The position numbers were made by a program, and so were the translations under genes. From contig JBHGNT010000016.1 of the NCBI GenBank assembly GCA_043228905.1, positions 2,480,001-2,544,000 on the forward strand: 64,000 bases of DNA, given 5' to 3'. Below the pieces are notes generated by a model. That model ran no database searches and was not told where the DNA came from. It saw only the letters and a list, made by a program, of their open reading frames with translations. Positions 11,970-56,563 of this stretch are shown piece by piece; within the stretch, counting starts at the first letter, position 1; each line of letters opens with the position of its first letter. This stretch comes from Azolla caroliniana. Its lineage: Eukaryota; Plantae; Polypodiophyta.

Positions 11970-12533
11970 CTATCTCTCTCTCTCTTTAAATTGGTCATAT
12001 ATGACCTCCGAAGACGATAATATAATCTATCTATCTCTTTAAATTGGCCTCATCATGAACAATAAAATATTGATTATATTGTTTCTCTCTCTCTCCTTAA
12101 ATTGACCATATTTGACCTCCGAATACGATAATATAATCTATCTATCTCTTTAAATTGGCCTCATCATAGACAATAAAATATTGATTATATTCTCTCTCTC
12201 TCTCTCTCTCTCTCTCCTTAAATTGACCATATTTGACCTCCGAATACGCTAATATAATCTATTGTGAAATGCACATAAAAGGAAACCAAACCAGCCCAGC
12301 TAGCTTCATACTTATCATTCAATATATAGAAGATACAAAGAACCCATTTTGGGACAGCCTAGCTACACGTGTCCCAAAATGGTGTGCTAAAAGGGTGGGC
12401 TAAAATGGGTGATGTGCTAAACGAGAGTGGCTAAAAGAGTGGTGTGTTCAAATGCATGCTCTTGCATGAAAGGGACACCACACTATCTATCTCTTTAAAT
12501 TGGCCTCATCATGGACAATAAAATATCAATGAT

Positions 12534-12564
<31 letters not shown>

Positions 12565-12601
12565 TTAAATTGGCCTCATCATGGACAATAAAATATCAAT
12601 G

Positions 12602-12636
<35 letters not shown>

Positions 12637-12977
12637 AAATTGGCCATATTTGACATCTGAAGACCCTAATATAATCTATCTAATCTATCTATCTCTTTTT
12701 AAATTGGCCTCATCATGGACAATAAAATATCGATTATATTCTCTCTCTCTCTCTCTCTCTTTAAATTGGCCATATTTGACATTTGAAGACCCTAATATAA
12801 TCTATCTAATCTATCTATCTCTTTTTAAATTGGCCTCATCATGGACAATAAAATATCGATTATATTGTTTCTCTCTCTTTCTCAATGTTGGCCTCGTCAT
12901 GGAAGATAAAATATCTATTATATTGACTCTCTCTCTCTCACACATAAAAGTGGCCTCATCATTGTCGATAAAATATT
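11970..12977. repeat. Microsatellite-containing tandem array of two alternating related monomers
   Basis: Alternating TTTAAATTGGCCTCATCATGGACAATAAAATAT and TAAATTGG/ACCATATTTGACCTCCGAAGAC..TAATATAATCTATC units separated by (CT)n; an isolated monomer also lies at ~15050-15130. Confidence 0.9.
12263..12482. mobile_element. Solo LTR (220 bp) inserted in the tandem array
   Basis: TGTG...CACA termini; flanked by CTAT at 12259-12262 and 12483-12486, one CTAT more than in uninterrupted monomers. Confidence 0.75.
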
Positions 12978-13837
12978 GGGAAAAGTACCAGGATACCCTT
13001 GGAAGTTTATCTATTTACTAGAATGCCCTTGGAAGTTCCAAACTACCCCTATGTCCAAAAGAATACATTTTATAAAGTAATTATACATAAAATCTACAAG
13101 CCCTATTTACCAAAATACCCTTCAGACACAAATTTCTTTACTTAAGTGATTCATAAGGTGTCATGGGAAAGGAGGCAATGTTCGCAGTTGTAGGACCCCA
13201 AATTAGTGACGATTGTGCATTATTAGATATTTTGTTGAGTCGATAGATATATTTGATTTTGTGGATATTTTTGGAATTATACGTTTTGTAGATGGATCAA
13301 AATTAACATGCGAGCTAATTGCATCATCTCTCACAGCTTGTCAAAGCTCCTTCAATGAGTCAAACTACCTTCTCTCCACCAAAGCCATTCTATGAGAGAC
13401 ATCAACCATTGAAATGAGACAGAGAGAAGAAGAAAAGAAAAGAAAAATCTTTGAAGGATATAGGAAAATGAGAATTTAGAAGGGAAAGGGGATTGCATAA
13501 TAAAAGAAGAAAGAGCAAACCTAAACATAGAGAAATGACCACATATAAAGAGAGAGAGAGAGAGTGTGTGTGTGTTATGGATCCTGATGTTGAAGACGAG
13601 ATTGATCAGCCCAATGAACAAGGAAGAAAAGAAAGACTACATTGTTAGGTACAAAGGAAATAAGTAAAGAAATTTGTGTTTAAATGGTATTATGGTAAAT
13701 AAGGCTTGTAGATTTGAGTGTATAATTACTTTATAAAGTTTGTTTTTTTGGACATAGGGGTACTTTTGTAAATTTAGAACTTCCAGGGGCATTTTGGTAA
13801 ATAGACAAACTTTTAGGGGTATCCTGGTACTTTTCCC
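12978..13837. mobile_element. Non-autonomous Mutator-like element with ~170-bp TIRs
   Basis: GGGAAAAGTACCAGGATACCC...CACAAATTTCTTTACTTA mirrored by TAAGTAAAGAAATTTGTG...GGGTATCCTGGTACTTTTCCC; 9-bp TSD TAAAATATT / TAAAATATA. Confidence 0.9.
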
Positions 13838-15087
13838 TAAAATATATATTACACACACTCACACACACAACACACGCATGTAATCTATTATGTTGTGCAA
13901 GCACTCTATTTCTTCAATCTCTTCAGAATGCACGCATGTGTCCCACCATTGATGTATTTACAAATAATGTGGACAATTGCCTTGTCATCTCAACACACTC
14001 CTTTAAGCTCGTTTTTCTTGCATCATGATGTTGATCAACAAGTTTGAATTACATTTTATTGTTTTGACAACCCCCATCAAGCTATGTCGATAAAGTAGAC
14101 CAAGTTAGGTTTTGTGCCACCGAAAATTGTCCCAGTTTGTCTACTACAATACAAGCACTTTGGCTAATATATCTATTGTGCACCGGTCAATTAAAATATA
14201 TTAAAAATCAATGTATTGTGTTGCAATTCTCTCTTGGATTTAGGGTTATTTCACATCATCGTGCTTTGTACGTGACAGTTGGATGTTGCCAAGGTTATCA
14301 CAATAGAGTCATATCGAGTCTTCTATCAAGATGTTGGCATCTCTAAGGATTTTCATGAGCCACATGACCTCAATATGACATTGCTTTCCACGGAGAATGT
14401 GAAGCCTCATCTTGATCATTGATTGACTAGGCTACTAGGTCAATAAACATTCATAGCCTTCTAGTCACATCATAACTCCCTCTTTATAATTCAAGATGTT
14501 GCATCCTCAATACCGCACACGTTACTCACTTAGAGTAATCCAAGTGCAGATTACACATTGCTATCATAATTTAGTTATATTTAATGAGAATTTGTTGATT
14601 CCATGTTGGATCGCCAATAATGGAGTTGGAGTCCGCGTTCATCTTCAAATCGTGCGAAGAGGGGTCCACACCATAGTCAAATCTCAATGGATATGTTGGG
14701 CATAATCAATGGTCATCGATGTATGTGAGGTTATGCAAGTTGATATCTAGGAAACGAGCTGCTCATGGTCATGGTTTGGTTACAAGAGATTAATTATGCT
14801 CATGCTCTGTTGAGGGGAGATCAAGCTTGTGAATGAGTTAGAGGTGCTAGATCCGCAAGCAAGCTAGCAAGGCTCTTATTATTTTTTCACCAGGAGGTGC
14901 GGGCACATACTATTGGTACAACGAGAGCAAAGCTGTCTGGCCGGCCGGGCCATCCATCATTGGACACTCACTAGAATTGAGCACATATGTTAAGGACCCG
15001 AAGGCCGCCCGCACGCCCGCCACTCGACATGTTTCTCTCTTCATAGGTCATACATATTTGACCTCCGAAGACGAAGATGATAATATA

Positions 15088-45799: not shown

Positions 45800-48608
45800 T
45801 ATGAATTTGCAGAATACAAGTTTGTCACTTTGGATAATGGTTGTAGGAGATTCTAACTGTCAGAAACTACAAAATGCTCTTCTCTCAGTTTCCAACTTCT
45901 TTATACAATAAGCTACGATAAAACAAAGTAATTACACTAGAAATTTGTTAAATGCTAAGAGAGGTTTGGCTTCTCTTCAAAATTTTCAAGAAAAACAACC
46001 TCCTTCTCAATATATTCATTGTGAATTACAAAATGCTATGATGCTTATTTCTTCTTTGTCGCAAAAATGTGTTCAATTCTTTTTTCAAGCATCTGCAACA
46101 AGATGGTGTGCAAAAGGTGACACCATGTCAAAAAAAAATCCAAAATGTTATGCCTAAAAGAAATAAAATTCAGATTGTACAGTTGAAAAGATCCGATGGC
46201 ACTGTCACAATGGATAGAGATGAAATGAGGCATATTGTAGCCACTTATTATGAATGTTGAAACTCTACAGATACACCAAAAAGTATAGATTGTTATTGTG
46301 GTTAAGGTAACATCTCGGATATCGCTTCAGCTTCTTCGTCCATTTTCCTCCTTTGAAACATTTCAGGCTATCAAAGGTGTTGGGCCATATGTGTGCTCGG
46401 GAGTAGATGGAATGGGAAGAGATTTTTTCATTACATATTGGGATTTGATTGTTGATGATCTACTTGCAGCATTTCAAGAAATGTTCAATATAGGTAGTAT
46501 GCCACAAAAGTGGAAAGAGGGATTGATATGCCTCATTCAGAAAGGTGATGTTGTTACGAATGAGGTAAAGGGTTCGCGGCCCATTACTTTATTGAATACA
46601 ATTTACAAAATTTATGCTAAGTTATTGGCTTTGAGATTACAACCCTTTCTTCTAGAGATTGTGCATGATTCACAGACGAGCTTTATGCAAGAATGTAGTA
46701 TTTTTTATAATGTTTTACAATTTTGGGAATTAACAGGGATGACAATGAAGAATAAAGAAGATCTTGCAATACTTTTATTAGATTTTGAAAAGGCATACGA
46801 CAAAGTTGATTAGGACTTCATGGAAGGTTCGTTTTTGAGATTAGGTTTTCCTGTTCAATGGATTAGGGTTGTTGCTTCGTTATATCGTGAGGCCTTTAGT
46901 TTAGTCTTGGTAGCCGGTGGGCAAACTAGAAAATTCTCTATTTCACATTCTGTACATCAAGGTTGTCCATTGGCCCCTTCCTGTTTTTGCTAGTAATGGA
47001 AACATTCTCAATGCACTTAAATTCTTCTCAAGTTTCTCTGAAGGGTTTGCCTTTGTCCCCTATGCAACAACAATTGTTGGATGCAGAATTTGCAGATGAT
47101 ATTGCAATTTATGTTCAAGGTAATGATGAAAATCTAAGTAATTTGCAAGAAGTAGTGGAGGAATTCTATTTGGAATCTGGAGCAAAGATAAATTGGCATC
47201 TCTTGGTTTTTGGGTATCACAAAATTCTTTGCCTACTTGGATGCCTTCGAAGGAATTCAAGTAGGTTCCTGATGGAACCACTATTGGTTACTTAGGTTGC
47301 CAAGTGGGGGACTTCATGTTACTGCATATATGTTAGTTGCTCCTCTACTTGTAAAGTTAAGGAGAAAATTGTTGCTTTGGGATTCGGTTAACCTGTCATT
47401 TGTAGGTTGTGTACTTGTAGCTAACCAAGTTCTTTTGGCTACTATTTGGTATATTACTTCTACTACGTTGTTTGCTAGATCATGTATTTTGTAGGCGCAA
47501 CGCCTCATTCGCAATTACATTTTGGGAGCTAAAACATGTCAAGATAAAAGGCCTAAAGTAGCTTGGTCAGTATCGGTTGCCCCACCACAAAATGGTGGGT
47601 TGGGGCTAGTGGATCCAGAAGCACAATGTAAGGCTTTGCTTTCTAAATTTGTGTGTACATCTATGTTGCCAATGCAAGGTGTTTGGAGTTGGTTGATGAT
47701 GCATAGGTTGTCTACGTGAATGTCCTCCAATGTTTTAGTTATTCGAGTAGTTGCAAGATCTGGAAAAAAATGGTTCTTGGATCCACCATTTCAAGAATGT
47801 TTACAGTGTTATTCATTGTGGGTTTTTCAAAAAAAGCTGCGTTACAATTTGGATTGGGATCTTGCTGATTATCAATGAAAAAAACTGAGTGTTGGTGGAA
47901 ATGGTAAATATTTGGAGTTTTTCCAATATTCGGTTAAGATAGGTAGAAATTTAATATTTCAATCAAAGTATAAATGCCTTGCTGCCATGAACCATTGGAC
48001 TGCAAATTATGTGAATGCATTGCAACTCACAAAATTTTGGAAATGGTTGTGGAGTATGCAGTTGCTGAAAAAGTGATTTGTTTTCGTTGGTTGTTGATGC
48101 ACTGTGCTCTTCCAATTGGTGATTGTTGAGGCAAAATCAGCAATATGCTTGTGGAATGCATTGTGGTGCATCTATGGAATCTATTTTGCATTTGTTTTGG
48201 TTATGTCCCAGGATCAAGCAATGTTGAAGTAAGTTGTTTTTATTAATGAGACACCATTATTCTCGTTCTATTTTCTCATGGGGTGCAGTATTATGGGGTC
48301 TCTTTCATGGAGATGTTATGATGTATGAAAGTAGGCATGCTTCTCATGTCTTACACTTTTCCCATGGGTACCTCTATCTCACTTCATTTCCATCTTTTAT
48401 TCCACGGTTTAGAATTGAAATTTTGGTTATTTGGCGTACTATTACGTCCTTAGCTCTTTGGACGATATGGAAAGTGAGATGTGATGTTTTTAATAATGCT
48501 CACATACATCTCCGCACCATTCTTATTGAATTTTGGTTGTTATTTGTCCATACCCTATGTGGGCAATATGATGATCTACAGGGTTCAGTTGATGCTCTAA
48601 GGCAATGT
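45800..48608 (+). mobile_element. Decayed L1-type LINE ORF2 (RT to zf-RVT), split by the gypsy insertion; resumes at 55110
   Basis: SRPITLLNTIYKIYAKLLALRLQ..LLLDFEKAYDKVD, SVHQGCPLAP, AEFADDI, GGLGLVDP, ALWTIWKVRC; many stops and frameshifts. Confidence 0.9.
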
Positions 48609-49239
48609 TGTCGAGGTTTTCCTCGCGGATGCGTGGAATGAGGCGGGACCTCAGGGGTCCTGTACCGAAGAGCAAGAGAGAAGGGACAAGAGACCCACTA
48701 CATGCGAGCGTAGATTCACAGGGACACGGCCCTTCGACACAAAGACGCGAGTGGGACAGCGACACAGAGAGACACGAATGTATGTATGTATTAACAAAGA
48801 CAACAACAAGAACACAGAAGCAACAAAAACACGAAGTCGATTACAACAGAACAGGCCGGCGAACAGATGCCGATGCCTGTTCGTAAACGCACAGAAAGAC
48901 AGGAGCAGGTTGGAGGTGCTGCCGAAAGCACTCGGGCATTCCTTAGAGCAGCGCGAGCCTCCCGAAACCTGCACAGAAGGAAGCTATGGAGTTTGTGAAC
49001 CAGAGAGAGAGAGAGAAGCCTTTGCACACAAACCGACAGCACTTCGTCCTCGACTCTCCGCAATCCCCCCCCCCCTTCTCGTCTCCCTCCTTTTTATAGG
49101 CAAGGAAGGAGCCGTTTCCCCTTTACTTCCTACCCACTAAATCTACCTGCCTAGGATCTTCTATGGACAACATTCGAGAAGAGCCGGTTCCTACGCTCCT
49201 GTGCACCGATTCCGCTTGTGGACGGTTTTCTTCACGACA
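48609..49239 (-). repeat. Gypsy 3' LTR (631 bp)
   Basis: TGTCG...CGACA termini; 48919-49239 is near-identical to 54776-55109. Confidence 0.9.
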
Positions 49240-52300: not shown

Positions 52301-52819
52301 TCCTATGCAGGCCGGATCTCGTAAACTGGGGTCCCACGCAACCCCTCTGATTCGGGACTCACTGCCCTCCGGTAAGGGTGCCGCGACGGGCCTTACCTTC
52401 CGGTCCATAGTCTTGTACTTCGTGCTAACTCGGCCCGCCCGATCCGACCCGAGCCCCCGACTGAAGTTCGCGATGACTTTGTACATCTCTTCGGAACATA
52501 CTGGTATCGTCCGGTCTTCATTAAGGTCTTCTCCGGCTACCTCCCCCAGCATTCCCAAGGTGTCGTCGAAGGAGACCGCCTCCACGGCTCCGCTGATTTC
52601 CTCGTCCGGGCCGAGAACTCCGCACGCTCGAAGTCGCACTTCCGCCCTTGTCTTTTCTCGGTCGACGATGCCGACTATCATACACCCTCTATTGTTGGAG
52701 AAGCAGAATTTCCTACTTATCGTACAGGGTTCCTTTGGTTTCGGTTCTATCGTACAGTCATGGGGTCTTTCCCGAGTGTCCGGGCTGTCTCGGCCCCACG
52801 CCTTGGCAGCCCTCTCTAA
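49313..52819 (-). pseudogene. Gypsy pol (RT, RNase H, integrase) with two nonsense mutations
   Basis: RT: LRFIQDLQPVN, GDLYSGYDQ, LPQG, PFLDDIPIKG; RNase H: VDTSPTGIG, ETDC, NAMADMLSR; integrase: YHDSPWAGHRG..TCESC, VDLVTMP, VADRGE, WFGPYVV. Stops at ~50423 and ~50333 are in one frame. Confidence 0.9.
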
Positions 52820-52825
52820 AAATCC
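52772..52825 (-). promoter_or_regulatory. Putative -1 programmed ribosomal frameshift signal (slippery heptamer plus pseudoknot)
   Basis: G GAT TTT (52825-52819) then TAG; the -1 frame is open into pol; stem GGGCTG/CAGCCC starts 6 nt downstream, with second stem CCGAG/CTCGG. Confidence 0.7.
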
Positions 52826-54775
52826 TCCCGGTTCTCGCCACCGAGGGATTCGCGGTTTCTCTCGTGGTTCGGCCGCACCGTCAGAAATTGAACCGAATGG
52901 CGCCCGTCCTGGCTTTTGACCCTCGCGTAGGCCGAACCGTTGTCCAGCACCTTGGTCTCCATTCGCTCCGCCGTGATGTATGGTTCCCCTAATATGACCG
53001 GGTGCGAGGACGTCTCCTGTACGAAGAAGTGCCGGTCAATCTCGACGTCGCCGATCTTGACTCGCACGTTCGGGCAGGCCCCGTGCAGTTCCTCGGTGGC
53101 GCGCGTCGCCGCCCGTATCTTCCACCTGTGCTTGGTGTTGATCGGCCACTTTCCCTTCTTATAGAAGTCCATGGACATCAAGTTTATTTCCGAACCGTGG
53201 TCCACCAATGCCACCACCGGTTCCGGAACATCTCCGATCTTTACCAGGGTCTCTGTGGTCGCTCGGCCCAGTGCGGCCTTGAATAGTGGCTCTCCGCCCA
53301 CTCATCTTTCAGCGCCATGTCGTCGATGTGCGTCGTCCGCACCTCCACCGGTCTTTCCGGTTCCGTCTCCGTCGACAGCCTCTTTCGTTTCACCAGGTCC
53401 ACAATGGAGTCGTGGAACTCCTTCTTTGCGATCCCTAGCACCTCTCGCAATGACAGCTCCACTTTGCTGTCGAGGATCCGTTCTTCTAGGACCTTTCGTA
53501 GGTCCGTAGTCCTTTCTATTTCTGTCCCCAGTTGGTATCCGCCCTTCCTGGGGTTATCTTGCGTGCCGGACCCACCGGCATCGTTCCGTCGTTGCCCGAA
53601 TCGGGTCTCGTACCGTTGTGAGGGCCCGGCTGCTCCGGCTTTCCCCACTCGTTTGTCTTCTACCAGAGCCTCGTAGTTCCGGCAGGCGGCTTCTATGAAG
53701 CCCGTCTTCTCCTCGACCGAATCGCTCCACCCGGTTATTTCTCGAACCCGTCTCTCAGCGCGGTCCGTTTCATCTTTCCTTAGCCGTGCGCCGGCAAGAC
53801 CTTCCAGCATTGCCGACCAGAATCCGTCTTTGCCCTCTGTTCCGGCCTCGCTGCCCCCGACCCGAATTCCGGCCGACGCCGAGTAGTGGATGGCCTCTAC
53901 GTGTCGGGCCGCTGCCTCTTCCATCAGTCTCTTCATACCTCCTCGCCCGTCGTTTCGGTTCAGGGCCCTCCTGGTGTCTCCGGCGTGCACCCGGCCTTCC
54001 CACAGGTACACCACCCGGTTCCTCAACGCCTCTGCGAAATCGCCGCAGTCCTTCCGAATGTGGCCGACCTCGTCGCACCACATGCACCTGTTCCCCGCTG
54101 CCGGTCGTCGGTCACGAGCCGGTTCGCCGCCTTCCCTTCGAGTCTGGGCGATCTGGAGATCCTTTATCGCCCGCGTCAACTCCTCCAGCGCTGCTCCTCC
54201 GGACGAGCCATTGACCATGCCGGTCGAAGCCGGACCGGTTTCGAGCCATTCCCGGGTTTCTTCCCTTCGCACTTGCGGTGCCGGTTCAAGCCTCCTTGCT
54301 GTGACAGAGCCCGCACCGGCTGCCCCGTTGTCAGCCCATTCTCGCCGTTTGTCGAAACAGCCACAAACTCTCTTAACCGCAGCCCAGTCGGTTGTCAGCC
54401 CGTCTTCGGTTTCCAGCAAGGAGCCAACTTGATCCCGGTCCCGCTCGTCCACCGACTTGACGAACAGTAGGACCCGACTCGTATCCAGAACGGTTCGGTC
54501 AAGCGCCGAAAGGCGCGCAAAGTGTTCTTCGAACTCCCGGAGGAGTGCCGACGCGTTTCTTCCCTTGCCGGGGGACTCCACCTATTCCATGAAGTCTCGT
54601 TTCGAAAGCTGGAGCGCGTCGTCTAGCCCGTATTTTTCTAGGAGTCGGCCTTCGAACTCCTCCTAGGTACGGCTCTCCGCCCGCACCTCGAGCGCCTCCG
54701 CATGGATGCTCGGCATCGCTACTCGAGGAAACCCGGCGAGACGCCTCTCTTTCGGAATGTCCCGCATCAGCATTT
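52816..54775 (-). pseudogene. Gypsy gag-protease, 5'-deleted, with one stop and one frameshift
   Basis: Zinc knuckle CMWCDEVGHIRKDC; aspartic protease VALVDHGSEINLMS..VILGEPY; TAG at ~54663; frame change near 53265 (HW/RATTET). Confidence 0.85.
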
Positions 54776-55200: not shown

Positions 55201-56392
55201 TTACATATGAGATTAATATATACAAATCCCTGTAGGGACACGATAGGTCCATCTTATGTGGATGCCCACCGACTCAATAAAGGGGTAGGTCGACCATTGT
55301 TGGATGAAGGCTAGTCGTTGTCTTTCAACTCCATCGGAGTTGCCCTTGAGGCCATCATATTGGCTTTTTAGAGTGGCTACAACTTCACTCCATATCTCTT
55401 GCATTAACACTGTTGGCTACGTGGTTTTGTTCAAGAAGACCCGTCTACACCGTTGTTTCCATAGAGTCCAAAGAGTTATTGGGCTGACCAATTCCAACAC
55501 ACCTTGAGATTTGGCATTGATAGGAGTTGAGTGGATATTGTCAATGGTGGAGAAAAAAACCTCTTGTGCTTTTATCACCAAAGCCATCCCCTCCTGATGC
55601 TTGTATTTATCAATTGGGGCCTGCCATGATAGCCAACATATATTTCCCCACATGATTAAGCCTTGCACCTGAGATAATTGCAATAAGCGGCCAACCCCTT
55701 GCCATATTCGATGGGCCTCTGGGCAGTCCCACAAAGCGTGTCAAATTGATTCTATTGCATTTGGGCACACTAAACAATTAGGAGAGCTAAGGTTCCCACG
55801 CTGCCATGCACCAACCGGTAGTGACCTATGTATTAATAACCATTGGAAAGTGGTGATTCGTCGTGTGTGTTGTTGTTTCCAGATTTTTTTCCAAAACTTG
55901 GTGATAATTGTGTGAGGAACATGATATGTGTGCCAGACCTTTGCAGCAGCCGACTCTCGGGTGGTTTGAGTAGCTAGAATATGGTGACCCAATCTAGTTG
56001 TGAATTGAAATAAAGGGATGTGTTTGCTTCCTTGCCCTACGTAAGGATCATGCCATGTCCATTGCAAAGGGTCCCAACTAATCTTACGTAACCATGTGTT
56101 TTCGTGAGTACATATGTGCCAATTTCGTTGTACTTTGATAGGATCAGGATCTACAATCCATTTATGCCCAGCATACGCTAGTACTCGAATTGCCTTATTC
56201 TGTGTTGGTGTCTCATTGTCTTGCAATTCAAATCTTGTGATCCTGTCTGGTGTTTCCCTACCTCTTGGGATCAAAGAACCCTCCTCCTCATAGCGTATCC
56301 ATTTCTCTATTGTCATCCTTTGATTAGCAGCTTCCCTAATAAGTAAAGCATTGATGATTTTAGAGGCTTCACTTATTTTCAGATACAACTTG
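55200..56392 (-). mobile_element. 5'-truncated L1-type LINE 3' fragment (zf-RVT region)
   Basis: FWKKIWKQQ..FQWLLIHRSLPVG..CLVCPNAIESI*HALWDC, TLWTLWKQRCRRVF. Confidence 0.85.
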
Positions 56393-56563
56393 TGGTATGA
56401 GGTGGAATTATGTCGTACCTTCTTTTTTATTGCATAGCTTGTAGTTTGTGGCCCACTTGTTTATTATATGATATCATATGTTTGATCAGATGTTGGTATT
56501 AGCCTTTGTATTACAATAGAGGTGAGATGAAATGTCTCCTTCTATTTTCTATACGTACATTTC
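56393..56563. repeat. Dispersed repeat, inverted copy of 2240-2414
   Basis: TGGTATGAGGTGGAATTATG...GAGGTGAGATGAAATGTCTCCTTC. Confidence 0.8.

Follow-up and report, generated by a model that had tools for sequence, protein, structure and literature searches.

A conserved slippery site and a predicted pseudoknot point to programmed -1 frameshifting between protease and reverse transcriptase in a Phygy-like retrotransposon lineage

How does a retrotransposon express its reverse transcriptase (RT) when a stop codon and a change of frame separate it from the protease (PR)? The question is raised by the minus strand of the window (the whole stretch of 64,000 nucleotides analysed here), in which the junction between PR and pol reads directly as CGG GAG GAT TTT TAG. 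From this copy a virus-like -1 frameshift had been predicted, with G_GAU_UUU as the slippery site and an H-type pseudoknot behind it. On the basis of the comparison with related copies and families described below, we propose that a conserved slippery site and a predicted H-type pseudoknot very probably drive a programmed -1 frameshift between the PR and RT of a Phygy-like lineage of Ty3/gypsy elements.

The junction and its host element

The site is hosted by a GC-rich LTR retrotransposon (55109-48609, minus strand; Table 1) that shows several decay breaks and is flanked by ACGT and ACAT, a target duplication with one mismatch. The predicted junction was found as described, with the heptamer, the TAG, GGGCTG six nucleotides further on (52812-52807) and CAGCCC (52787-52782), and the CCGAG and CTCGG motifs proposed as a second stem are likewise present in the window copy. 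The -1 frame, said to run open into a pol ORF of 752 aa, is indeed stop-free between 53035 and 50423, where RT and RNase H (RH) are encoded; the 752 aa, counted from an ATG at 52681, are set by a decay stop, and the pol of intact siblings reaches ~1170 aa, through the integrase (IN). The window copy is itself decayed and merely preserves the signal. Decayed LINE-like RT and RNase-H-flank fragments border the element (46289-48641, plus strand; 55417-56460, minus strand), and elsewhere in the window a long imperfect inverted repeat with several arms and the look of a foldback or MITE-type element (12968-13847) adjoins tandem arrays (11972-12950).

Table 1. Features of the window copy and of its PR/pol junction
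Feature	Position	Strand	Comment
5' LTR	55109-54776	-	Truncated, 3' half and primer binding site deleted; ACGT flank at 55113-55110
gag remnant	54775-53241	-	Start deleted, one internal stop, frame broken before PR
Aspartic protease ORF	53301-52816	-	Retropepsin fold, D-H-G triplet; C-terminal part of Gag-PR in intact siblings
Putative slippery heptamer G_GAU_UUU	52825-52819	-	Read in the gag-PR frame; kept in 30/30 nearest copies
UAG stop of gag-PR	52818-52816	-	Abuts the heptamer; opens the 6-nt spacer (52818-52813)
Predicted stem 1, 5' arm	52812-52805	-	6 perfect pairs here; lineage register 8 bp, one mismatch in this copy
Predicted stem 1, 3' arm	52789-52782	-	
Predicted stem 2, 5' arm	52800-52794	-	CGUGGGG, within the stem 1 loop
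Predicted stem 2, 3' arm	52765-52759	-	CCCCAUG
Stem 2 of the original prediction	52793-52789 with 52776-52772	-	All 5 pairs in 1/35 sequences
Coding linker	52825-52432	-	~130 codons in the -1 frame from the shift site to RT; conserved at the protein level, no protease domain
pol	52825-50423	-	Linker, RT, RNase H and start of integrase; decay stop at its end
Remaining integrase	50422-49313	-	Cut by decay stops
Polypurine tract	49260-49240	-	
3' LTR	49239-48609	-	ACAT flank at 48608-48605

The family is abundant and recently active. Two first-look searches of the genome gave 2810 and 7372 candidates, and a 21-nt site pattern has 1160 exact matches in it versus 0 for the reversed control. Among 20 full-length copies picked for long PR-containing ORFs, 11 retain both ORFs intact, namely a Gag-PR of 708 aa, counted from the first suitable Met, and a -1-frame pol of ~1170 aa ending ~70 nt short of the 3' LTR; the LTR pairs of these 11 copies are 98-100% identical, and a single fused ORF was found in none of the 20. 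In three loci (L037, L038 and L045) copies are inserted within other copies of the same family, which would fit a preference of this GC-rich element for targets centred on CG.

The element was assigned as a Phygy-like Ty3/gypsy retrotransposon by its listed traits. The 5' LTR of the genome copies is followed by a conserved site starting with TGG, which may match tRNA-Trp, the primer type of Phygy. Phygy, a non-chromovirus lineage of Ty3/gypsy, generates a 4-bp NCGN target duplication (Neumann et al. 2019, PMC6317226), and here an NCGN 3' flank is present in 18 of the 19 copies with an LTR pair (of the 20). Phygy is further described as devoid of chromodomain and aRH, and none of the four window proteins gave a Pfam match to either. 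The length of ~7.1-7.3 kb from LTR to LTR falls just below the 7656-9968 bp that the same survey lists from one moss species; its ORF organisation is entered there as ND (PMC6317226). Among named proteins, liverwort gene models come closest, at 47-65% identity, and in the RT tree the element groups with liverwort proteins. The host is probably a seed-free plant. The PR-RT joins of these gene models (P0001-P0026) vary among close copies, and to the extent that gene models can tell, this suggests annotation artefacts, with predicted introns placed over the same frameshift.

Frame offset, slippery site and pseudoknot across the lineage

A rival reading takes the frame change for an indel that is private to this copy or goes back to a family founder, in a dead element whose downstream pairing is due to chance; the decay of the window copy at several other places speaks for it. 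In 50 genome loci the offset from PR to RT is -1 in 46 (including L050, scored on the second element in its locus), same-frame in 2, +1 in 1 and unscorable in 1, with 0-frame stops between PR and RT in all 49 scored loci. The other offsets of the three off-pattern copies (L006, L040 and L045) are read as later indels. A more divergent set consisted of the best 80 of 313 metagenome loci, with PR upstream of RT in 57 and not in 23. Among those 57 the offset is -1 in 55 and +1/-2 in 2, and never same-frame; L121, counted among the 55, no longer has the junction, and its site is absent. The other 56 loci collapse at 90% similarity to 34 families whose RTs are 55-95% identical; because a few related assemblies supplied many of the 80 loci, the families are distinct but do not stand for independent hosts. 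A stop-free frame joining PR to RT, as siblings of a privately mutated copy might be expected to have, was seen in 0/49 genome copies and 0/57 divergent loci. Since offset and signal are the same in copies that are young and intact and in families whose RT identity is as low as 55%, the private indel is already refuted and retains next to no probability. The features on which the original prediction turned, namely heptamer, stop, -1 offset and stem 1, are all conserved in the family alignment, stem 1 with covariation. As judged from these sequences, the predicted signal is lineage-wide.

The limits of its distribution were sought in proteins. No protease was found in 69 non-liverwort pol proteins of 1000-1280 aa, and a search among longer proteins returned fused PR-RT in two kinds of sequence only, liverwort gene models whose joins are inconsistent and the outgroups P0022, P0027 and P0028. 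With fused forms limited in this way, the signal characterises this clade. P0022 is the sister of the frameshifting clade; its PR and RT share an ORF in which D-F and G-F-F motifs remain at the junction, and it may record gain or loss of the shift. At the other extreme, a very divergent locus on a long branch (L128:3012-3088; RT 55%, linker of 60 codons) retains G_GAU_UUU together with a 6-nt spacer and a predicted pseudoknot of two stems.

In the 32 families with a -1 offset the heptamer is GGAUUUU in 26, GGAUUUC in 3 and GGGUUUU, GAAUUUU and AAAUUUU in 1 each. GGATTTY is thus present in 29/32, with the Asp codon GAU throughout these and variable flanks, the positions upstream of the heptamer varying freely. 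A stop follows the heptamer immediately in 26/32, and all three stop codons are used. In-frame GGATTTY lies at the end of ORF1 in 29 of these 32 divergent families versus 3 of 16,655 other ORF1 codon positions, the site having been defined as the last in-frame UUU before the stop by a rule set after the data had been viewed, with one family (L053) re-anchored by hand. This enrichment, together with the 1160 versus 0 matches of the site pattern, indicates more than chance. Although G_GA is an imperfect XXX of the X_XXY_YYZ heptamer, G_GAU_UUU belongs to the type as an accepted variant, and the known -1 sites of plant viruses include some that begin with a G_GA triplet and some in which a stop lies close to G_GAU_UUU (PMC5009743).

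The position of the shift relative to PR follows from both sides of the junction. Upstream, a profile of 20 homologues of the ORF1 domain has the Ty3 protease as its best match (E 0.004), and a predicted structure (pLDDT 79) resembles Ddi1 and retroviral proteases with E down to 3e-6; the domain is a retropepsin. Downstream, none of 19 linker sequences gave a protease match. As PR ends at the stop and the linker is without protease, the shift falls between PR and RT. The catalytic triplet (53202-53194, minus strand, in the window) was read over the 57 loci as D-H-G in 45, D-S-G in 6 and D-G-G in 1, and was unread in 5, the usual triplet of aspartic proteases being D-T/S-G.

The interval from heptamer to RT is open in the pol frame in 33/34 families and in the 0 frame in 0/34, and the linker is conserved at the protein level. 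These properties bear on two other routes to pol. Splicing of the Ogre type could excise the junction and join PR to RT in frame, as Ogre has an intron between GAG-PROT and RT (PMC6317226) and PR is joined to RT in Riccia gene models. However, an interval that is open throughout in the pol frame only and conserved as protein, between ORFs that overlap with no spacing, does not resemble an intron, and the Riccia joins vary from model to model among close copies, as we would infer for predicted introns drawn over a frame break. We consider splicing very improbable. Contigs of four sequencing runs aligned at 80% contained no GT-AG joint across the junction; with patchy cover and a presumed RNA status, they have no bearing on splicing or expression. 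Alternatively, pol might start at an AUG of its own by reinitiation or internal entry, with the RNA structure as entry element, and every linker does contain in-frame AUGs. The first of them, however, lies anywhere from codon 3 to codon 111 depending on the family, with no shared place or context. The pol frame, moreover, stays open as far back as the heptamer, and in 11/32 families it is shut by a -1-frame stop only 3-9 nt before that site, which pins entry into the pol frame to the heptamer in these families. A slippery heptamer would also be superfluous to such a start, which we regard as highly unlikely. The -1 frameshift is favoured instead, with overlapping ORFs in which Gag-PR is followed by linker-RT-RH-IN in a -1 frame open from the site.

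Across the 34 families stem 1 begins 5-6 nt past the heptamer, within the 5-9 nt of such signals. The structure was examined in a nearly gap-free alignment of 35 sequences, in which each of the eight pairs of the stem 1 core (columns 19-26 with 49-42) is formed in 31-34 sequences. Double-sided changes over ten pairs amount to 44 versus 17.6 +/- 4.1 in shuffled controls that ignore relatedness (0/500 reaching this value), and in slid registers pairing drops from 80% to 24-42%. A segment of the stem 1 loop (GUGGGG in the window) pairs with a partner 9-17 nt beyond stem 1, the conserved core being UGGGG/CCCCA (52798-52794 with 52765-52761 in the window copy). Own partners score 15.7 versus 13.0 +/- 0.4 for partners swapped among sequences (0/20,000), and 15.2 versus 11.8 +/- 0.7 in the 14 families lacking GGGG. 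Thus an H-type pseudoknot with two covarying stems is predicted to follow the heptamer. In the original prediction stem 1 and the pseudoknot as such were correct and are supported by this covariation; the particular stem 2 was not, and as a conserved stem it was rejected, being fully paired in 1/35 sequences. It could form only in the subfamily of the window copy, as an accessory pairing at most.

A simple H-type finder recovered a pseudoknot in 33/34 families, and in 30/34 it was equalled by no more than 2/60 controls of each kind; in L109 the finder detected no pseudoknot, those of L082 and L091 were weak, and L053 was anchored at the wrong place. When the window copy was folded by itself with nested pairs only, the MFE was not significant (z -1.38) and is uninformative for a pseudoknot, so that structural support comes from comparison. 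A search of Rfam gave no match, with three chance hits far under threshold. The structure also bears on slippage of RNA polymerase on the U-run, or RNA editing, which could restore the frame in some transcripts given the run of 4-5 T at the site. Yet this run is short, reduced to TTT in the GGATTTC families, and a covarying RNA pseudoknot at a fixed ribosomal spacing suits translation; correction at the transcript level is exceedingly unlikely.

In the programmed -1 frameshift that we propose, most ribosomes would halt at the UAG and yield Gag-PR. In a minority, which would pause at the pseudoknot while GAU occupies the P site and UUU the A site, the two tRNAs would re-pair on GGA and UUU, as in established -1 frameshifting, leading to Gag-PR-RT-RH-IN. 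With the shift confined to a minority of ribosomes, the protease would match Gag in abundance, and RT and integrase would be rationed. Both the ribosomal shifting and the ratio of Gag-PR to Gag-PR-Pol are inferred.

A nested branch in another frame

The two divergent loci with a +1/-2 offset, L098 and L103, belong to one clade (100/100) that lies within the -1 families. In this clade (L098:2831-2907 and L103:2493-2569; also L131-L150) the site is A_G_GUU_UUU, followed by a 5-nt spacer, one base shorter than in the sister families, and by a tighter predicted pseudoknot, which is kept and scores among the highest. The pol ORF lies in the +1/-2 frame (1181 aa in L098 and 1106 aa in L103) and the -1 frame is shut within a few codons. 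The site of this branch has 95 exact matches in the genome analysed here; the first 20 of these copies are +1/-2 in 17, same-frame in 2 and -1 in 1, and the -1 linker of each contains 6-21 stops.

With respect to the pseudoknot, the aligned pol frame of the nested branch stays in register and the PR frame has moved by one base, so that slipping by -2 here would lead to the same place as slipping by -1 in the sister families. Shorter spacers are reported to favour -2 shifting (PMC4937337, PMC3458567). A +1 reading was less favoured: the commoner variant of the site would need re-pairing from UUU to UUG, and -2 is preferred for this reason. We consider it probable that the branch uses -2 and not +1, and pol frame, site and shorter spacer together suggest -2 shifting driven by a pseudoknot.

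Beyond this, we incline moderately to a wider view, that an old Ty3/gypsy lineage of seed-free plants may have rationed RT and integrase throughout its history by a pseudoknot-driven -1 shift after PR, and that one branch may have converted the cassette to an RNA-structure-driven -2 shift on an arterivirus-like site. If true, this would provide a ready-made evolutionary series on the way in which the direction of the slip depends on the length of the spacer and the strength of the stem.

Comparison with known systems

The findings amount to a lineage-wide recoding signal whose kind is known and whose setting is new, with a probable switch from -1 to -2 in one branch. A 2016 review (PMC5009743), in the portion of its text that summarises a 2003 survey (Gao et al.), gives the cases in plant LTR retrotransposons as +1-frame only, and the 2019 plant survey (PMC6317226) lists no lineage with overlapping GAG-PROT and RT ORFs. 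A search of the openly accessible literature, which did not extend to subscription journals, Repbase entries, bioRxiv supplements or the 2003 survey, gave no description of a PR/RT frameshift in plant retrotransposons, and an earlier mention is possible. A lineage-wide -1 signal in an abundant family would fill this gap, and the layout that keeps protease with Gag would then have arisen outside retroviruses. Furthermore, with 34 natural pseudoknot variants and a sister branch whose pol lies in the -2 frame, natural sequences become available on which the mRNA-tension model of the choice between -1 and -2 can be tested.

Among plant elements, Ogre and Retand (Tat) also separate PROT from RT, by a spacer or intron or by a single stop codon (PMC6317226). 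They carry aRH, whereas no aRH match was obtained here and the ORFs overlap with a predicted -1 signal. The original claim that the arrangement is unusual for a plant element therefore does not hold for the PR/RT split itself, but it does for the overlapping frame with a -1 signal.

The site of the nested branch resembles GG_GUU_UUU, the -2 site of arterivirus nsp2TF, in that RG_GUU_UUU is combined with an ORF in the -2 frame (PMC4937337). The arterivirus shift is described as stimulated by proteins bound to a C-rich motif and not by RNA structure, whereas in the nested branch a predicted pseudoknot occupies that position.

Sites of the G_GA type occur in dianthoviruses, umbraviruses and insect-specific flaviviruses, and pea enation mosaic virus RNA2 has the same heptamer, G_GAU_UUU, with a stop close behind (PMC5009743). 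These are RNA viruses expressing a polymerase, whereas the structure predicted here is a compact local H-type pseudoknot, and in the material compared there is no sign of a common origin. A search of viral contigs gave 26 pattern matches and no relative.

The closest parallel in layout is with the alpharetroviruses, in which the protease sits in the gag ORF, upstream of the shift. In Rous sarcoma virus the -1 shift of gag-pol is stimulated by a pseudoknot (PMC5009743), as predicted here. The present element differs in being a plant Ty3/gypsy retrotransposon without env after pol, with another heptamer and with a linker of 130 codons before RT. The layout that it shares with alpharetroviruses is most simply explained by convergence.
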